DNA of 64,000 nucleotides from Escherichia coli O157:H7 (GCF_013167455.1 NZ_CP038328.1), one strand, 5' to 3'. Counted from the stretch's first letter, positions 11,595 through 35,191 are shown. A program made the numbers and translations. Notes: generated by a model from the letters alone, not told the origin.

Positions 11595-12062
11595 TTAGTT
11601 CAGGCACTGAGTGCGGATATAGTCCTGTGCCCCTTCCAGCTGCTTCTGCATTGTCATCAACCGTTCTCTGAGGATGAAATAATCCCGTTCAGCGGTGTCT
11701 GCCAGTCGGGGGCCGGTTGCATTATCCACGCCGGAGGTGCCGGTGGCTTCACGCACGGTACCGGAGCAGGTGGCGTTGATCCGCAGGCGCTTACGACCAG
11801 CGGCAACATCAGCACGCAGAGTTTCATTTTCAGCTCTCGCATCGGCTAACTCCCTCGAGTATTTTGCATCGAGCGCAGCAACATCACGCTGGCGCACCTG
11901 CATGTCAGTAATGGTGGCATTCGCCTGTTCCAGCTCTCTGGCTTTTTTATCGCGCTGCGCTTTGTAGGTGAGCGCGTTGTCACGGTAATGGTTTGTTGCC
12001 AGCCACAGCGCACCACAGCCAACCGCCAGGACAATAATCACCACACACAGAACACGGTTCAT
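11595..12062 (-). CDS. Rz-like i-spanin
   Basis: 155 aa; N-terminal transmembrane segment then coiled-coil; last gene of lysis cassette. Confidence 0.8.
11657..11842 (-). CDS. Rz1-like o-spanin lipoprotein, embedded in Rz in another frame
   Basis: [34 protein letters not shown]: lipobox VVSAC plus proline-rich body; probable start at 11827. Confidence 0.75.
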
Positions 12063-12215
12063 CTCTCTTTCACCCCACCAGTCCCGATAACGTCAGGACT
12101 CGCCAGGCGGTGGAAAAGAAAATGGCAACCAGCATGACTAAAAATGAAATGCCGACAAGTACACAGAGGCTCTTCACCAGCGTTATGAGTTTATCTGATA
12201 TCATTAGCCACCCCA

Positions 12216-12785
12216 TCAATCCGCCTTTGTTATTTTCCCTTTGCCTGTATCAGCCAGGACAAAATCAATCAGCATATTCGCTTCATTTACCAGCGTACGG
12301 ATTTTTGATACATGCGCGGCTTTAACCTGTTTCCACTCATTCAGCCCGGTAGCAAACACACTGGCAATGTTTTTATCCCGTTTCATGTCAGCACAAGCCT
12401 GGTTGAGTTCTTCCATCACGCTCATTTTACGGGGATTAACGACAAAACCCTTCGTCCAGTACTCGTAAAGAACATCGTCGCACTCTTCCTGATACCGGAT
12501 GACCTTATCGCGGATTTCGGGTTTTACTTTGTTGGGATTAATGGTTTGTAGCCAGCCGGCAAGTTTTCGAAGTGGCATGGACACCATATTGCGTTGTTTC
12601 CCATCCTCAGCAACCATAACGATTTCCGTTATAGTTGACGCAAAACGCTGTCTTAACTTAGCCAACTGTGATTGCCAGGCCAGCCCCATCCCCGCAACGA
12701 CAGGTTTCATGGGAACGTATGGTTCGCCATTATGGTTAACTACATAAAGAGAGTTGCCGTGAAACGGCACGGCCATCATATTCAT
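12216..12785 (-). CDS. phage antirepressor (Ant/KilAC-type) within the lysis cassette
   Basis: 189-aa ORF between R and Rz; sequence family recalled from Stx-type prophages. Confidence 0.55.
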   Translation of the reverse strand: MNMMAVPFHGNSLYVVNHNGEPYVPMKPVVAGMGLAWQSQLAKLRQRFASTITEIVMVAEDGKQRNMVSMPLRKLAGWLQTINPNKVKPEIRDKVIRYQEECDDVLYEYWTKGFVVNPRKMSVMEELNQACADMKRDKNIASVFATGLNEWKQVKAAHVSKIRTLVNEANMLIDFVLADTGKGKITKAD

Positions 12786-13055
12786 CGGTTATTTCCTTTT
12801 AGTGATGAACCTTGTCTCACAGGAATCCAGCCCACAGAAAGGCACCGACAGCCAAACCGGTATCCTCAAGGGTCATCCTGAAAGGTTCTGTGTTGTGAGA
12901 TGCGCGTGAGATGCGCAGAAATGACAAAGGCATCATTACGGTGCCTGAGTGTTAAACAACTGTTTTGACTTTATTCACTTACATTTTGCCAATTTGCAGG
13001 ATTTCGTGTTATCCGTCCATGTAAGCAAACCTCATTTTTCAGCAAAATATTCTTC

Positions 13056-13589
13056 TTATCTGTCGATTCCCCAGCACGCCAGCGCGCTCTCCTGGTCACG
13101 ACGGGATATCTGACCGTAACAGTTGTTTGAACGAATACGGCAGTCTCTGCCACCGTCCTTAATCCACCAGCGAATCGCTTCGCAGGCACCTTTTCGATCA
13201 CCTGCATTAATTCGTCTGTAAAACGTCGACGGGAAACACTTACCGGGACCAATGTTGTACGGACAGAATGACGCGATCCCCGCTTTCTGGGGTTCGGTCA
13301 GCGGCACTTTGATGTTTTTCTCCACCCATGCCAGCGCCTTATCACGCTCAATGGCGTTAACCTGGTCGCATTTTTCCTTCGACAACTTCATGCCCGGGAC
13401 GACAGGTTTACCATCCACCAGGATGGCACCGCGGCAGATGGTCCAGATACCCGTACCATCACGGTATGCTGTGGTGTGGTTACCTTCCTTTTCATCCAGA
13501 AACTGGTCGAGGATTTCAGGCGCAGACGCCCCTGCACCAATCAGCGCCAGAACGGCAGCCGACAGGCCGTATCTGATTTTTGCGTTCAT
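13056..13589 (-). CDS. endolysin R (lysozyme with N-terminal signal-anchor)
   Basis: 177 aa; MNAKIRYGLSAAVLALIGAGASAPEIL… hydrophobic N-terminus, …HTTAYRDGTGIWTICRGA… lysozyme-like core. Confidence 0.8.
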   Translation of the reverse strand: MNAKIRYGLSAAVLALIGAGASAPEILDQFLDEKEGNHTTAYRDGTGIWTICRGAILVDGKPVVPGMKLSKEKCDQVNAIERDKALAWVEKNIKVPLTEPQKAGIASFCPYNIGPGKCFPSTFYRRINAGDRKGACEAIRWWIKDGGRDCRIRSNNCYGQISRRDQESALACWGIDR

Positions 13590-13639
13590 GGATATTTATC
13601 AGGATTTATCGATTTCAAATCCCTGGATATGTTAAGTCT

Positions 13640-13984
13640 TCAGGCCAGCGGTGGAGTCTTCAGAGAACCCGTAATTATTCCCGGTAGTTTTCCTCTGTAG
13701 GTTATCAACACATCCTGCGCCTCTAAAATGATGGGCCGCTTTTCCGGCAACGGACCATCCCCTTCACATAACCCGGCAGCAACATCCATGAAAAACTGCT
13801 TCGCCTGCTTTTTCGCCTCAGCTTCGTAAAACTCCAGCGTGGCACCTTCAGTACGGTCAAGACTAATCGCCACATCTGGCAACAACAGTGACGGATACCC
13901 ACCAATTTCCAGTGCCACAGTAACAGTAATCTTATCCGGGTAATTATTTATCCCTTTAACAACCAGTTCGTATTTTTTCTTCAT
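13640..13984 (-). CDS. hypothetical protein between holin and endolysin
   Basis: 114-aa ORF, same strand as S and R, no recognised motif. Confidence 0.4.
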   Translation of the reverse strand: MKKKYELVVKGINNYPDKITVTVALEIGGYPSLLLPDVAISLDRTEGATLEFYEAEAKKQAKQFFMDVAAGLCEGDGPLPEKRPIILEAQDVLITYRGKLPGIITGSLKTPPLA

Positions 13985-13988
13985 CGCT

Positions 13989-14195
13989 TTACTCTCCCCG
14001 CGCCGCCTTACGCTTATCTTCTTTAATCTTGAAATAAAGGTTTGTCAGATACGTCAGCAGGCCAAACAGCAGACTCCCCAGCACACCTATCGCCACCCAC
14101 TGGGACGGAGAGACTTTGTCCAGCAGCTGCAGTAACCAGTATCCCGTCCCCACCGCTGACGTGGTGTATGACACACCCGTTGTGATTTTTTCCAT
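13989..14195 (-). CDS. holin S
   Basis: 68 aa, [68 protein letters not shown]; two transmembrane segments, basic C-terminus; matches holin of Stx-type phages. Confidence 0.85.
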
Positions 14196-14642
14196 CTGAT
14201 GTATGTCTCCGTCACCGCCGACAGAAAATGAAAGTAAAGGAAAACAAAAAAGCCGCCAGTGTCACCCACTGACGGCCAACGCCGGGAGCCGTGATTATGG
14301 CATTCAGGCTCTGCTAAAAATGCCAGATAACATTCCGGCCTCCCCCGATTCAGGTTATAAATGACACAATATCTTGACAACATCCGTCACTGTCTGTCAG
14401 AAAATGTACTGCCATATAGAAGCAACATGTGAAGTACATCTATCCTTTTGAGCCAGCACCTCTCCACCGAAAGTCAGTGCTGGCTGTTTTTTTCCTTAAT
14501 AAAGCATCTGTAACTGAAACAATCCGCATATTGATAATATATTGACAGGCATCATTGCTGTCTGTGAAAAATAAGTCTCTACAAACATATAAGGCCTTTT
14601 AGCCAGCGTCTTCTTTTTCAGGTCAGTCGCTGGCTTTTTTTA

Positions 14643-16493
14643 TTATGCTGCCGGTGCATTTATCTCCAGCATCAGACTTTCTATCTCAACGCCATACGCT
14701 GCATTTTTTGTAACATCCGTCAGCGTCAGCGCATTCAGTCCCAGTGTCAGACTGTCTTTTATAACCTGGAATGCCGGGCCAGCCACTCCATTCAGTTTCG
14801 GAGTAACCGTGGCACTGCCGGCGGTGAACACCAGCTCCAGCGTCTGCCAGTCGTTACCGTAATCGCCGAACTCCCCCAGCTTCGTGTTTCCGGCTTTCCT
14901 GTGATGCATCAGATTCACTCTGCCGTCAGTGGTCTGAGTGAAGTACGACATCAGGAACGGATTACCGGTACCCGTCATCGCCACACCATCAGGAACGGGA
15001 GCATCCGTATACAGATAAATCCCCAGCCCGAACTGATTGTTGGTCAGCGCGCCTGACAGGCGGAACTTACAGGTCAGTCTGCCGCCCTGTGTCAGCAGGG
15101 TAATTGCGTCATCCACCGGATGCGTCAGGGACCAGGTTTTATTGCTCTGCTTGGTGATCTTAAATACACCATCTGACAACTGAATTCCGCCATCCTTAAT
15201 GCTCCAGCCCTGCGCAGCAGCCTCTCCGGCTGCCGGCAGCAGGGAGATTGTGCGAACGGACGTATCTGCAGACGGACCCGATGGCGTGTTGCCGCCGGGC
15301 GAGGGTTTGATTTCCGGTGCCTTACCACTGATGAAGGCTGAGGTGCGCCCGGCTGCGTTCAGAATAGCGGTTGCCAGACGATCCGGAATAATGCTCCTGC
15401 GCGCCCATGAACTGAAATGTGTCGGGCGGTTTGATGATACCTGGTTTCCATTCGTTCTCGATGCCGCACCGTAATATCCTGATGCCGGAATATCCGGATC
15501 TTCTGCCGGCGCGTTAGTGGCGGTATTGACGCCGTTACCGTCTGTCATGAAGGGCACAAAATAAACGCCCTCACTCTCCCTGTTTTTATACCCGCCGTAC
15601 ACGGTGTCGTACTGGGTAGCGTATGTATTTTTCCAGTAATACGTCGTGTCACCACAAATCCACGGCACATCTGCAGCACTGCCACCATGGCACTGCGCGT
15701 TAAACACGGAGAGGTCAGCACGAAACTGTGTCAGCATGGCTGTAAACAGCGCAGGTTGCTGTGCGTGGGTGGCGGCGCTCATGTCAAACTCTCCCTGCAT
15801 CCAGCACACCGCCAGCAACACATTTTTCGGGTTCTTCTGTAATGCAGCTTTAGTGCGCGCAATCAGGTCCTGATATAACGGTTTACCCACACCCCAGCGT
15901 GCCGAATCCTGGCTGGCCCCCGTGTCCGCACTGAATGTCCCCTCCGCGCCCTGGGTGAATGCAGAACCACCACGACAGCATGGTACCAGCAGGATCCCCG
16001 CGTTATTCGGGATATACGGGAGCAGTTTTTTGGCAATATGTAAGCCCTGGCCGACACAGCCGTACTGCCCTTTGCTCAGGTCTGCCTTCGGATGATTCAG
16101 CGTACTCATATCCTGCACATCATGCAGGCAGTGGTCGGCCGGAATAATATCGTTATATCTGCATGCAGCCCCACCCGGCGTAACTGTACTGCGGCGCGCC
16201 AGCTGTTTAATGCGCGGATCCGGAGCATCGTATGAATCCGGCAGCGGAAGCCCTTCACCGTAAGCCATGGCATTGGACTGCCCGGCCAGTACGATGACGT
16301 AGTACCAATCCGGCTCAGTTGCACCACTGACCACCACATCACCTTCTGCTGTAATCGCCTGCATCAGGGTATAAGGGGTTATGGCCACCGGACTACCAAA
16401 CGGCTGCCAGCCCTCTTTCAGTTTGTGTGTCAGCTTTTCCGCAAGGTCTGACGGCGACGCCGCCCTGACAACATCATAATGTTTAAATGTCAT
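14643..16493 (-). CDS. prophage sialate O-acetylesterase (NanS-p-like; N-terminal DUF1737 plus SGNH esterase)
   Basis: 616 aa; N-terminus MTFKHYDVVRAASPSDLAEKLTHKLKEGWQPFGSPVAITPY…; VIVLAGQSNAMAYG esterase motif; located upstream of S as in Stx phages. Confidence 0.75.
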   Translation of the reverse strand: MTFKHYDVVRAASPSDLAEKLTHKLKEGWQPFGSPVAITPYTLMQAITAEGDVVVSGATEPDWYYVIVLAGQSNAMAYGEGLPLPDSYDAPDPRIKQLARRSTVTPGGAACRYNDIIPADHCLHDVQDMSTLNHPKADLSKGQYGCVGQGLHIAKKLLPYIPNNAGILLVPCCRGGSAFTQGAEGTFSADTGASQDSARWGVGKPLYQDLIARTKAALQKNPKNVLLAVCWMQGEFDMSAATHAQQPALFTAMLTQFRADLSVFNAQCHGGSAADVPWICGDTTYYWKNTYATQYDTVYGGYKNRESEGVYFVPFMTDGNGVNTATNAPAEDPDIPASGYYGAASRTNGNQVSSNRPTHFSSWARRSIIPDRLATAILNAAGRTSAFISGKAPEIKPSPGGNTPSGPSADTSVRTISLLPAAGEAAAQGWSIKDGGIQLSDGVFKITKQSNKTWSLTHPVDDAITLLTQGGRLTCKFRLSGALTNNQFGLGIYLYTDAPVPDGVAMTGTGNPFLMSYFTQTTDGRVNLMHHRKAGNTKLGEFGDYGNDWQTLELVFTAGSATVTPKLNGVAGPAFQVIKDSLTLGLNALTLTDVTKNAAYGVEIESLMLEINAPAA

Positions 16494-16702
16494 TATTCCT
16501 CCCGGCCGGGATAGTGTATTAAATCAGATATGGAGTGGGCTGTAGTCCGGAAGCCTGAATGACACACGGGGACTACAGCCCAAGAAATGAAAAAAGGCCA
16601 CGCAGTTGCGCAGCCTGATAAACCCTGGTTAAAATCCACACGATAACAACACAACAATATCAGTATCTCATGCTATTGCCCGAACCCATTCGGGCATTTT
16701 TT

Positions 16703-16735
16703 TACCCATAAAAAATGCCCCTCCGGAGAGGGGCA
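16703..16735 (-). terminator. intrinsic terminator downstream of TerB-like gene
   Basis: gcccctccggagaggggc stem with U-run on the minus strand. Confidence 0.5.
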
Positions 16736-17065
16736 TGTTTGCATGCACATTCTTTTTCTTGCATGGTGCCGGGTGCCTCCCGGTGAATTCAGTATCAGCA
16801 CCTGAATCCGCGATTATCCCATATACCTGGTTGCTGATCGCCCCTCCGCACAGGGGGATTCACCATGCAGAAGTGTTTTTAATAAACAGCAAACAAAAAA
16901 ATCAAGCATTATGCAGGCTGTTTCTTTTTATCACCGGCCACAGCAATACCACAATGCCGCAGACCAGCACCCCATCCGCCAGCACCGACATGATTCTGCT
17001 GGTGAAATCCACCATCACCACCAGAAACAGCAGGAGTGCAGCCACAGCCAGGCGCAGTTTTACCG

Positions 17066-17497
17066 TCACAGGTGATTCTCCAGACGAAGACCCAGAACAC
17101 CGGCAATCTCTTCCAGCACCTTGCGCTCTTCCGGCTCAATTTCGCCGTCTGCCTCCGCAATGGCCACCGCCACATCCAGCACATCTTCCGCTTCACGCGT
17201 ATCGTGTTTCACATCCTCAATCTCGCGTAACGCGGCACGACGACCAATTTTAAAATTGGTATCCAGCTGACCGATAATGGTTGCGCTAATCGCATTAATT
17301 TCCGAGGTAAACGCAGACAACGCAGGCTGATTACGTAAGACCTGTTCGATCTTCGCTTTCTCGGATGCCTCGCATTCACCATCTGCATAGGCCACCAGGT
17401 ATGCAGCGTTAATCACCGCCTGTGCCAGATCGCGTTTCTCAAACTTTTTAATTTCCGCTGCCGCTCTGCGGGTTTTCTTTTTGAAGATTCCAAACAT
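17066..17497 (-). CDS. TerB-like (tellurite-resistance TerB domain) protein
   Basis: Start MFGIFKKKTRRAAAEIKKFEKRDLAQAVINAAYLVAYADGECEASEKAKIEQ…, acidic C-terminal half; occupies the position between the tRNAs and nanS-like gene. Confidence 0.6.
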   Translation of the reverse strand: MFGIFKKKTRRAAAEIKKFEKRDLAQAVINAAYLVAYADGECEASEKAKIEQVLRNQPALSAFTSEINAISATIIGQLDTNFKIGRRAALREIEDVKHDTREAEDVLDVAVAIAEADGEIEPEERKVLEEIAGVLGLRLENHL

Positions 17498-17666
17498 CGT
17501 GACGTTCCTTTGGGTGGGTGAGCCAACGCCCGGGAGCGATCTGCCCACAGAGAAAGTCACACTGACCACTCCGTAAGCTCACCCCCGAAAGGCTCTGTGG
17601 TTGATATGCGCCGGGCGTGGCGCAGATACAAAAAAGGCCCGCCGAAGCGAGCCTGGAAAATAAGTG

Positions 17667-17743
17667 TGGCGCGTTGTAGTGGAGTCTAACCACTGACCGA
17701 TTGCTTAGAAGGCAATTGCTCTGTCCGACTGAGCTAACAACGC
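17667..17743 (-). tRNA. tRNA-Arg (anticodon UCU)
   Basis: Cloverleaf gcgttgt/acaacgc acceptor, anticodon loop cuUCUaa, unusual T-loop ttagact, CCA encoded. Confidence 0.75.
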
Positions 17744-17756
17744 ATGATGCTGATAA

Positions 17757-17833
17757 TGGACCGCCATCGGGGACTTGAACCCCGCGCAGCCAGCTTCGAA
17801 GGCTGGCGCTCTGTCCCGATGAGCTAATAGCGG
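17757..17833 (-). tRNA. tRNA-Arg (anticodon UCG)
   Basis: Cloverleaf with anticodon stem ccagc/gctgg, loop cuUCGaa, T-arm cgggg-ttcaagt-ccccg, CCA encoded. Confidence 0.7.
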
Positions 17834-17842
17834 TATGTAATA

Positions 17843-17918
17843 TGGTGGCCCTTGCTGGATTTGAACCAGCGACCTGGCGATTATGAGTCGCTCGCTCTCA
17901 CCACTGAGCTAAAGGGCC
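17843..17918 (-). tRNA. ileZ: tRNA-Ile2 (anticodon CAU, ileX/ileZ-like)
   Basis: ggccctttagctcagtggtgagagcgagcgactCATaatcgcc…; near-identical to E. coli tRNA-Ile2 (ileX) from memory; first of three tRNAs downstream of Q. Confidence 0.75.
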
Positions 17919-17946
17919 GAGCCAAAAAATAATAATCAGATGAAAA

Positions 17947-18992: not shown

Positions 18993-19116
18993 GTCTTTTT
19001 ACCCTTTCCGGTTAACGTGACATACCAATAACTCTTGTCTAAAAAGCCAGCAAGATAAAAAGCCAGTATTCACGACCACCAGCGTGTTTACTGTACTGCA
19101 CCAGGTTTACAGGTAC

Positions 19117-19140
19117 AAAAAAACCGCTCAGCGGCGGGTT
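19117..19140 (-). terminator. stem-loop plus U-tract (candidate late-operon terminator/antitermination target)
   Basis: Plus strand aaaaaaaccgctcagcggcggg; on minus strand a GC stem followed by U7. Confidence 0.4.
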
Positions 19141-19264
19141 TAAGTTGTGTGGCGAAGTAACCACTCTTAACAGCATATTTGATTTTTTACGATTGTAAAC
19201 GGTTGATTATTCATCTCCAATAAAAATAATTGTGTGGGTATGCCCTTAACAATGGATAAGAAAC

Positions 19265-34472: not shown

Positions 34473-35191
34473 ATAAGAAACCTCAAAGATAGTGAACTTT
34501 ATAATTATTCTCGATACTTCATGGGTTGCTTCATCACCAACATGAGCTTCTTATGGTGTGCCCACTTGGGCCTAAGCAACCAGTTACCTCGTTTGTCAAG
34601 TTTATAGCTGGCTTTAACCATGGTCAATTGAAGTGATGAGCAAATGATGCTTTCTAAGAATAACAGGTTCCCAATAGGCTCCCACAAAGTGCATAACTAG
34701 TTGTTTTTCAAAAACGGTACATCCTATCGAGCATTGGTGCAACGCTAAACCGACCACTCCAGTGAACGTCAGTTTTTTCAGGCATTGCGCTGGTTTGGTT
34801 GATTTTTTGCATTTCAGAATTACCGTGCATTTTCAAATGTAGAGATTATTTTATCGATATATCATGTGGTTATGTTATTCAGCATCACTGTTCAGGAGGC
34901 TCAATAACGGGGTACTATACCATAACAACAGGAAGCGCCTGTCTCATTGCAAAAGAAAATTGAGATCCTCTCAAGGCATGAAGCTCTCACGAAGTGAATA
35001 TCTAATCTTATTAGATGTTAGCGTTGTGAAAAGCAATGATAAACAATACAGATTCGACGATAAATAAAAATCACACATTAAACTCCGGTGATATCTCTCC
35101 CTGCTAATAGCACTGATAGAGAAAAAAAGAACCCAATAAACATTGGGTTCTTTTATGTAATACCTTTCATACCATCGAAGAACTTCACATA

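Follow-up and report, generated by a model that had tools for sequence, protein, structure and literature searches.

The locus described here lies in a 64-kb stretch of the Escherichia coli O157:H7 genome (GCF_013167455.1, NZ_CP038328.1; the whole stretch is called "the window" below) and holds a pair of small genes, tciA and tciB, in the place where Shiga toxin (Stx) phages carry stxAB. Read along the minus strand, on which all main features lie unless marked plus, the order starts with the antiterminator gene Q, a putative lipoprotein gene on the opposite strand, a pR′-like promoter with an early terminator, a small protein gene and a YdeO-like AraC regulator, and continues with three tRNA genes (Ile2, Arg, Arg), a hairpin, a structured leader, tciA–tciB, the convergent small RNAs (sRNAs) STnc100 and AgvB, the esterase gene nanS-p and the lysis genes (Table 1). 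We believe, with a probability of roughly 70%, that the locus represents the "moron slot" in the late operon of a lambdoid prophage from the same family as the Stx phages, with tciAB as its late cargo. The prophage itself is an ordinary lambdoid prophage of E. coli, for which annotation already exists.

Table 1. Features of the tciAB locus in the order in which they follow one another along the minus strand, with the evidence for each (aa, amino acids; nt, nucleotides; ORF, open reading frame; SD, Shine–Dalgarno sequence).
Feature	Position	Strand	Evidence and remarks
Q antiterminator gene, 126 aa	19792..20172	-	PHROG 79, Q-like, E=1.5e-51; 73% DNA identity to Stx2a_WGPS8 Q
Putative lipoprotein gene, 148 aa	19265..19711	+	ORF; PHROG 3152, E=3e-104, function unknown; 38% G+C
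pR′-like promoter and short leader	19112..19200	-	TTTACA 19199-19194, TATGCT 19177-19172; promoter and terminator scan
Small protein gene, 65 aa	18795..18992	-	ORF; PHROG 331; TrmB-family by a relative's annotation
AraC-family regulator, YdeO/GadX type, 237 aa	17947..18660	-	NCBIfam YdeO E=4e-31, GadX E=1e-24
tRNA-Ile2(CAU)	17843-17918	-	ARAGORN (anticodon CAT); Rfam 72.5 bits
tRNA-Arg(UCG)	17757-17833	-	ARAGORN (TCG); Rfam 56 bits
tRNA-Arg(UCU)	17667-17743	-	ARAGORN (TCT); Rfam 66.7 bits
Hairpin and U-run after argO, G+C-rich, terminator-like	17635..17654	-	Terminator scan
Structured tciA leader	17498..17608	-	~100 nt ahead of tciA
Leader parts		-	5′ flank CCACAGAG 17600-17593; anti-SD CCUUU 17592-17588; inner hairpin; CUCUGUGG 17552-17545; SD AAAGG 17511-17507
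tciA, TerB-domain protein, 143 aa	17066..17497	-	Pfam TerB PF05099, E=2.2e-12, residues 26-138
tciB, DUF3927 small membrane protein, 55 aa	16902..17069	-	Pfam E=4.8e-17; PHROG 1470 "TciB-like", E=4e-30
sRNA STnc100	16704..16897	-	Rfam RF02076, 142.7 bits (gathering score 47)
sRNA AgvB (anti-GcvB)	16641..16702	+	Rfam RF02702, 96.5 bits (gathering score 56)
nanS-p-type esterase, 616 aa	14643..16493	-	Pfam DUF1737, SASA, DUF6645
Lysis cassette	11595..14195	-	ORFs; RefSeq annotation of 98% identical UTAK-1 region
Holin S	13989-14195	-	
YdfR-like gene	13640-13984	-	
Lysozyme R	13056-13589	-	
ant (antirepressor-like)	12216-12785	-	PHROG Ant, E=2e-112
Small ORF	12070-12219	-	
Rz	11595-12062	-	

The toxin genes themselves are absent from the window: a tblastn search of all 64 kb with the Stx1 and Stx2 subunits gave no coding match (best E=0.15), in agreement with an earlier reading of the stretch from its sequence alone (the sequence-only reading), which had proposed a toxin-less relative of the Stx phages with different cargo in the stx slot. 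Alignment to Stx-phage late regions, suggested there as a check, upholds both the relatedness and the proposal itself, as both flanks of the slot align. On the upstream side, homology with Stx2a and Stx2k phages runs past argO, through the hairpin at 17654-17635 and the motif TATCTGCGCC, to about position 17600; past TATCTGCGCC the tci phages have about 90 nt extra, and similarity breaks before stx2A versus tciA, with the ribosome-binding stretch AAAGGAAC, common to all of them, just ahead of the start codon of either gene. On the downstream side, an Stx2a and an Stx2k phage have stx2B directly followed by STnc100, the sRNA that comes after tciB here and in the stx-less prophages PPyecE_EH1910 and JLK-2012, while Stx1a phages are nearly identical (97.6%) through nanS-p, AgvB and most of STnc100, until about 95 nt past stx1B. 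Because both flanks are common to the Stx phages, tciAB sits where stxAB sits, and the two are alternative cassettes between the same flanks.

The resemblance extends over most of the late region. The Stx2 phages 933W, Sakai Sp5, Stx2a_WGPS8 and phiSTEC1575-Stx2k have the same Q type, pR′-like block, tRNA trio, post-tRNA hairpin and STnc100 placed 3′ of the cargo; a class II holin S and nanS-p (97.6% to Stx1a phages) are shared with Stx phages as well, and the Stx2k phage also has the AraC-like gene ahead of the tRNAs. The window differs from them in being without stxAB, its slot being filled by tciAB and the extra leader of about 90 nt, in the opposite-strand gene that separates pR′ from Q, and in lysis and head genes that belong to other mosaic types.

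The sequence-only reading had named a 143-aa TerB-domain gene between the tRNAs and the esterase as the cargo, with a terminator of its own. The gene is there, as the Pfam match (E=2.2e-12) demonstrates, and in the right place for cargo, but it is only half of what the slot holds: the cargo is a two-gene operon, tciA–tciB, because the GTG start of tciB overlaps the tciA stop codon as GTGA. The terminator in turn really belongs to the sRNA STnc100 (16736-16715, terminator scan), which starts 5 nt past the tciB stop and converges on AgvB. Besides its Pfam domain, TciA matches the solved Klebsiella TerB, 2JXU (E=4.4e-8), and PHROG 632, "tellurite resistance" (E=1.7e-69); NCBIfam did not assign TciA, TciB, Q, the lipoprotein or the esterase to any specific family. 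In an AlphaFold2 model of TciA and TciB fused through a linker, TciA is helical, with a per-residue confidence (pLDDT) of 80–93 over residues 20–143. A Foldseek comparison of this model with the PDB was weakly informative, the best match, 2H5N, having a probability of 1.0 yet E=7e-3 and a TM score of 0.57–0.63, and 2JXU was not among the structural matches listed.

Both the protein and its pairing with TciB look well conserved. The ratio of nonsynonymous to synonymous substitutions (dN/dS) of tciA is 0.014–0.044 at dS 0.4–1.5, as expected of a gene under strong purifying selection, and 13 phage lineages all keep, without change, the paired ADGxxxxxE motifs and further acidic residues. Among 15 tciA loci drawn from lambdoid, P1, D6, N4-like, jumbo and Pseudomonas phages, 12 have a hydrophobic TciB-like ORF that abuts or overlaps the tciA stop, within a few bases, and such an ORF adjoins tciA in all of the 33 distinct pairs extracted; by this pattern TciA and TciB are evidently a functional pair. 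There are 130 phage records with a TciA homologue, some of them from virulent N4-like and jumbo phages, and a search of IMG/VR with a TciA alignment returned only relatives at least 90% identical.

Two known systems invite comparison. In the ter operon, terZABCDE(F), of IncHI2 plasmids and enterohaemorrhagic E. coli (EHEC) islands, a tellurite-resistance, phage-inhibition and colicin-resistance operon, TerB (2JXU) has the same Pfam domain and the same two acidic ADGxxxxxE motifs as TciA; unlike it, TciA is encoded by a stand-alone gene with a small membrane partner, and neither the ORFs nor a relative's annotation place terZ, terA, terC, terD or terE near tciAB at this locus. The closer parallel is tciA–tciB–tciC of phage P1 (also in D6 and P7), where a TerB-domain gene (42–51% identity) is immediately followed by a DUF3927 gene and, in P1 and D6, tRNA genes flank tci, among them a tRNA-Ile2. 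P1 differs in that its tci genes lie between the C1-repressed ban promoters and ban and not in a Q-controlled late operon; P1 also has a third small gene, tciC (35 aa), and the leader element found in the window is missing from P1 and D6.

This leader, about 100 nt ahead of tciA, folds more stably than shuffled sequence (z=-3.5): pairing is possible between its 5′ arm, AGAGCCUUUCGGGGGUGAGC, and the 3′ arm, GGCUCACCC...AAAGG, in which the SD lies. Both arms are kept, with a diverged interior, in E. coli and Klebsiella prophages (TciA 42% identical) and in an Erwinia jumbo phage. In an RNAalifold alignment of 18 leader sequences 97.7% of cells pair, but most pairs are invariant and only two or three show compensatory change, and the covariation support for an SD-sequestering helix is thin. 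Of 62 distinct sequences, moreover, 60 have an 8-nt segment in the inner loop that is fully complementary to the 8 nt directly preceding the element, while shuffled 8-mers attain 8/8 complementarity in 0.5% of trials; for flank and loop, enterobacterial prophages have CCACAGAG/CUCUGUGG and jumbo phages CCGUAGAG/CUCUACGG, a difference of two compensated pairs.

The leader also keeps to its place ahead of tciA. An exact-pattern scan of IMG/VR gave at least 120 stretches, 80 of which were inspected; taken together, all 80 have the match 7 nt ahead of a tciA start, including one for which no start codon was found. Behind the leader, 71 have an intact tciA homologue (30–100% protein identity) and eight a truncated, frameshifted or contig-cut ORF that still retains a TciA-like N-terminus. 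No Rfam family matches the leader. In the window's own copy the minimum-energy fold is an alternative structure with the SD free, so a two-state switch is possible. We regard the tciA leader as a candidate regulatory RNA and, being conserved and able to pair with the ribosome-binding site, as the one possibly new item of the locus. A 2026 preprint on prophage sRNAs lists TerB among their conserved neighbours (10.64898/2026.05.13.724894), and for this reason the leader was considered as a PasA/PasC sRNA; this identification was rejected.

The hairpin after argO is kept in Stx2a and Stx2k phages, JLK-2012 and PPyecE_EH1910, and in one locus (L063, 4235-5000) two copies of it bound an extra two-ORF cassette between the tRNAs and tciA, which suggests that the hairpin marks cassette joints. 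Terminator-like hairpins stand on both sides of tciAB (17654-17635 and 16736-16715), in a region enriched in such sites as a whole (23 found versus 6.6 expected in the terminator scan). That the leader is a novel cis-regulatory RNA gating TciA/TciB translation, and that tciAB is a hairpin-bounded cassette moving with tRNA arrays between phage families, is a combination about which we are rather doubtful.

Several observations touch STnc100 and this hairpin. There is a weak match (19.5 bits, E=0.023) between the window's hairpin copy and the 3′ end of the STnc100 model. In P1 (L008, 2430-2470) and D6 (L012, 2930-2965) a hairpin upstream of tciA, CACCGGGAAGCACCCGGCACC, resembles the STnc100 core, CACCGGGAGGCACCCGGCACC; in lambdoid phages the conserved core is found downstream of tciB.

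The three tRNA calls of the sequence-only reading are secure, being made by ARAGORN and scoring far above the gathering score of the Rfam tRNA model (29 bits). The array spans 17667..17918, with a promoter-like site just ahead of it at 17957-17929; its identity to the ileZ-argN-argO trio, in 933W as in many Stx2a phages, is 93.8%. Its CAT tRNA is 100% identical to ileZ of an Stx2a phage, annotated as tRNA-Ile, and close to P1 trnI, labelled tRNA-Ile2 in the P1 record; RefSeq calls it tRNA-Ile in near-identical genomes. The order Q then tRNAs, also claimed earlier, holds, though three genes intervene, the YdeO-like AraC regulator among them.

Codon usage, the second check that had been suggested, gave the expected enrichment: per 1000 codons, the prophage genes and the host genes of the window have, respectively, 7.3 and 1.3 ATA, 5.5 and 0.4 AGA, 4.6 and 0.9 AGG, and 4.5 and 2.0 CGA, so that these codons are 2–13 times commoner in the prophage. 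Summed, the rare codons amount to 15–30 per 1000 in the structural, lysis and early groups of prophage genes versus 4.6 in the host genes; the enrichment spans all three groups and peaks in small A+T-rich cargo genes. The tRNAs would supply AUA, AGA/AGG and CGA decoding for the prophage overall. They suit the prophage as a whole, and stx2A (25 of 319 codons rare, 78 per 1000) in its relatives, but are not present for tciA, because tciA hardly uses rare codons (1 of 143, 7 per 1000).

This last point bears on whether tciAB is functionally tied to the tRNA genes that accompany it, beyond a common insertion hot spot. Seven of the 15 loci, which come from unrelated phage types, have a tRNA gene no more than 750 bp from tciAB: the window (Ile2/Arg/Arg), JLK-2012 (Asn/Thr/Gly), P1, D6, a Klebsiella prophage, an Erwinia jumbo phage and a Pseudomonas phage. 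P1 and D6 have tRNAs on both sides of tciAB, the Erwinia jumbo phage ChrisDB (L011) has tciAB inside a tRNA array, and 50 of 60 lambdoid-type IMG/VR loci have upstream tRNAs, of at least five different sets. In lambdoid phages, however, both features are kept at one moron site after pR′ and adjacency is to be expected, which makes the proximity in P1/D6 and the jumbo phage the more striking; at the other eight loci no tRNA is that near (at seven the stretch fetched contains none, and at one the distance is 1.9 kb); rare codons are little used by tciA; no biochemical link is known; and the tRNA genes with the conserved hairpin could merely act as recombination joints. On balance we consider such a tie quite improbable. 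As an observation in its own right, tciA–tciB is found beside or within tRNA clusters in L008 (P1), L012 (D6), L011, L006 (JLK-2012), L014 and L017, which are unrelated phages.

How the cargo would be expressed can be proposed from the Stx phages, since in the Sakai Stx phages both antitermination at pR′ and a separate tRNA promoter have been demonstrated (PMC7547250). In the lysogen, polymerase starting from a constitutively active pR′ would halt at the early terminator, while the tRNAs, the AraC-like gene and the sRNAs would be transcribed from promoters of their own. After induction, Q would render the polymerase terminator-resistant; it would then pass the tRNA hairpin and go on to transcribe tciAB, nanS-p and the lysis genes, and TciA and TciB would be made late in lytic growth. 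By analogy, then, we infer that most transcription of tciAB, as of stx2 and nanS-p, would come from polymerase modified by Q once the prophage is induced.

What the pair does at that stage can be narrowed down to some extent. Strong purifying selection, the adjacency of TciB, the homologues in virulent phages and the placement in P1 together suggest a function during lytic growth at the inner membrane. We tentatively propose, as something that could well be otherwise, that TciA is a cytoplasmic, acidic TerB-fold protein which acts with co-translated TciB at the inner membrane, for example by excluding superinfecting phages or colicins or by stabilising the membrane until lysis, rather than being a toxin that damages the host. 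Phage Ter components have been proposed to serve in competition with superinfecting phages (Iyer et al., PMC7824862), and TerB domains, which occur in anti-phage systems, have been described as moving between cytoplasm and membrane (bioRxiv 10.1101/2025.09.30.679545).

A number of points weigh against reading tciAB as a late cargo with such a role. The Q dependence of tciAB is argued by analogy only, and the window, which ends inside the structural genes, covers only part of the prophage whose induction this role presupposes. The simple consensus scan, which found no sigma-70-like promoter site between the post-argO hairpin and tciA, can overlook weak or non-sigma-70 promoters, and tciAB may also be expressed in the lysogen. 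The AlphaFold model of the TciA–linker–TciB fusion gave a confident TciA and one long TciB helix, with no information on an interface. Known defence proteins in PADLOC were not matched significantly: the best model for TciA was PDC-S48 (E=0.0035, 14.5 bits, no stretch passing alone), and TciB had no PADLOC match. In the literature, our search found no experiment on any phage TciA or TciB; two phage papers leave TerB function open (PMC3728262, PMC8421299), and in P1 tciABC proved dispensable for plaque formation in a CRISPR interference screen (PMC10695390).

Expression in the lysogen is the core of a different explanation, in which tciAB is a lysogenic-conversion trait: transcribed either from an undetected promoter or by polymerase reading on from the tRNA promoter, it would give the host the kind of protection that the plasmid ter operon confers, be it from tellurite or oxidative stress, from pore-forming colicins or from phage. 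TciA does belong to the TerB family, and the name "tci" stems from historical ter phenotypes (P1 record notes; PMC7824862); EHEC-type genomes very commonly carry the module, and in multiple copies (801 genomes, median of four places); and neighbouring cargo, namely the AraC-like regulator and AgvB, acts in the lysogen (PMC10877973, PMC4104026). Yet TerB is there without the other ter genes, a terminator-like hairpin stands between the tRNAs and tciA with no promoter-like site after it, the leader can sequester the ribosome-binding site, and the strictly virulent phages that have homologues have no lysogen to protect. We therefore think this unlikely, although not negligibly so, and prefer a late, lytic role for tciAB.

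The presence of TciA in virulent and jumbo phages would also suit an anti-defence decoy, a phage copy of a TerB sensor module that disturbs a TerB-containing defence or the Ter stress system of the host during infection, and TerB domains are indeed contained in the defence systems Dionysus, Bunzi and Shango (bioRxiv 10.1101/2025.09.30.679545). As the PADLOC result given above indicates, however, TciA has no specific likeness to the TerB proteins of defence systems, and a simple decoy leaves the conserved membrane partner TciB unexplained; we consider this explanation very improbable indeed.

The arrangement itself is real, common and annotated, and already known. Prophages without stx, namely PPyecE_EH1910 (LC567835), JLK-2012 (NC_049942) and those in E. 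coli UTAK-1 and many O145, O157 and other genomes, have 96–99.9% DNA identity with the window and the same order of tciA–tciB, STnc100 (with or without AgvB), nanS-p and lysis genes. They are variously labelled "TciA/TerB-like protein", "tciA/tciB" or "tellurite resistance TerB family protein" with "DUF3927 family protein"; the last two names are those used by RefSeq for the pair, and the TciA/TciB names of phage records follow P1. They differ from the window in their Q alleles, JLK-2012 in addition in its Asn/Thr/Gly tRNAs and PPyecE_EH1910 in being without tRNAs. In complete E. coli genomes, the full 3.6-kb stretch is present in 644 of 5,426 (coverage at least 80%, identity up to 99.9%), and tciAB alone in 801 of the 5,426, with a median of four places, and up to 10, among genomes with any match.

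The slot, too, has been described. Tree et al. (2014) recognised a moron site downstream of the Q-antiterminated pR′, with stx2 in Sp5 and other coding genes elsewhere, and reported convergent sRNAs between the cargo and a conserved downstream ORF in EHEC prophages (PMC4104026); the window is an instance of this, with nothing essential different, the sRNA pair being STnc100/AgvB. A paper on O26 Stx1 phages does not mention TerB cargo. Some novelty is left, limited to what so common a cargo does and to the conserved leader ahead of it. The interest of the locus lies in the function of one of the most frequent EHEC-type cargoes of this slot, and not in the arrangement: knowing the role of TciA and TciB would make clear what is expressed, in many non-Stx prophages of pathogenic E. 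coli, from the switch that drives the toxin. In genome scanning, a prophage with the late region of an Stx phage need not be toxigenic, and the slot is open to typing by what borders it, tRNA and hairpin at one end and STnc100 at the other.

Of the remaining features, the pR′-like promoter lies 590 bp downstream of Q, and its leader ends in a hairpin with a U-run at 19135-19123 (terminator scan). The block is kept in Stx2a_WGPS8, there just 3′ of Q, and also in UTAK-1 and PPyecE_EH1910, and the site at 19199-19172 is the best candidate for a predicted promoter of the late operon. The spot between Q and this promoter, filled here by the 148-aa gene, is taken by other genes or by insertion sequence elements in relatives; the N-terminus of the 148-aa protein, as read from the sequence, resembles a lipoprotein signal. 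The 65-aa gene has a terminator-like hairpin 3′ of it at 18808-18791 (terminator scan) and an annotated homologue in phiSTEC1575-Stx2k, a phage in which the same AraC-like gene also stands ahead of the tRNAs and stx2k. In the window the AraC-like gene has a strong promoter-like site of its own at 18723-18696 (ATGATA-16-TATAAT, promoter scan). Its YdeO and GadX matches are both under the curated cut-offs of NCBIfam. The prophage regulators PsrA, PsrB and PatE control acid resistance and type III secretion in EHEC (PMC10877973), and the AraC-like regulator is in the same class.

Downstream of the cargo, STnc100 and AgvB, whose function as an anti-GcvB has been described (PMC4104026), converge between tciB and nanS-p. 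The esterase gene is 97.6% identical in DNA to yjhS/nanS-p of Stx1a phages, where yjhS is annotated as a 9-O-acetyl-N-acetylneuraminic acid deacetylase. The succession of a NanS-type esterase and then S-R-ant-Rz, as first read, is confirmed on the minus strand by domains, ORFs and the annotation of a relative. The gap between nanS-p and holin S (14196-14642) contains terminator-like hairpins at 14277-14251 (-), 14339-14322 (-) and 14620-14636 (+). According to the 2026 preprint, the holin/lysozyme operon typically adjoins pasA/pasC (10.64898/2026.05.13.724894), and this gap is a candidate place where an sRNA of that type might lie.

The window begins inside the head genes, and the other end of the prophage is outside it. 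The right-hand end (~34800-36200; 36467 onward), a boundary judged from the annotation of near-identical genomes, abuts a displaced 5′ fragment of dusA and a frameshifted DUF2713 gene, beside zur; no integrase was seen there. Among the host genes, finally, a 526-aa ORF between ubiC and malM (44187-45767, minus strand) is very rich in ATA, with 18 such codons; the annotation of a related genome has, as its counterpart, a frameshifted gene of the SopA family.

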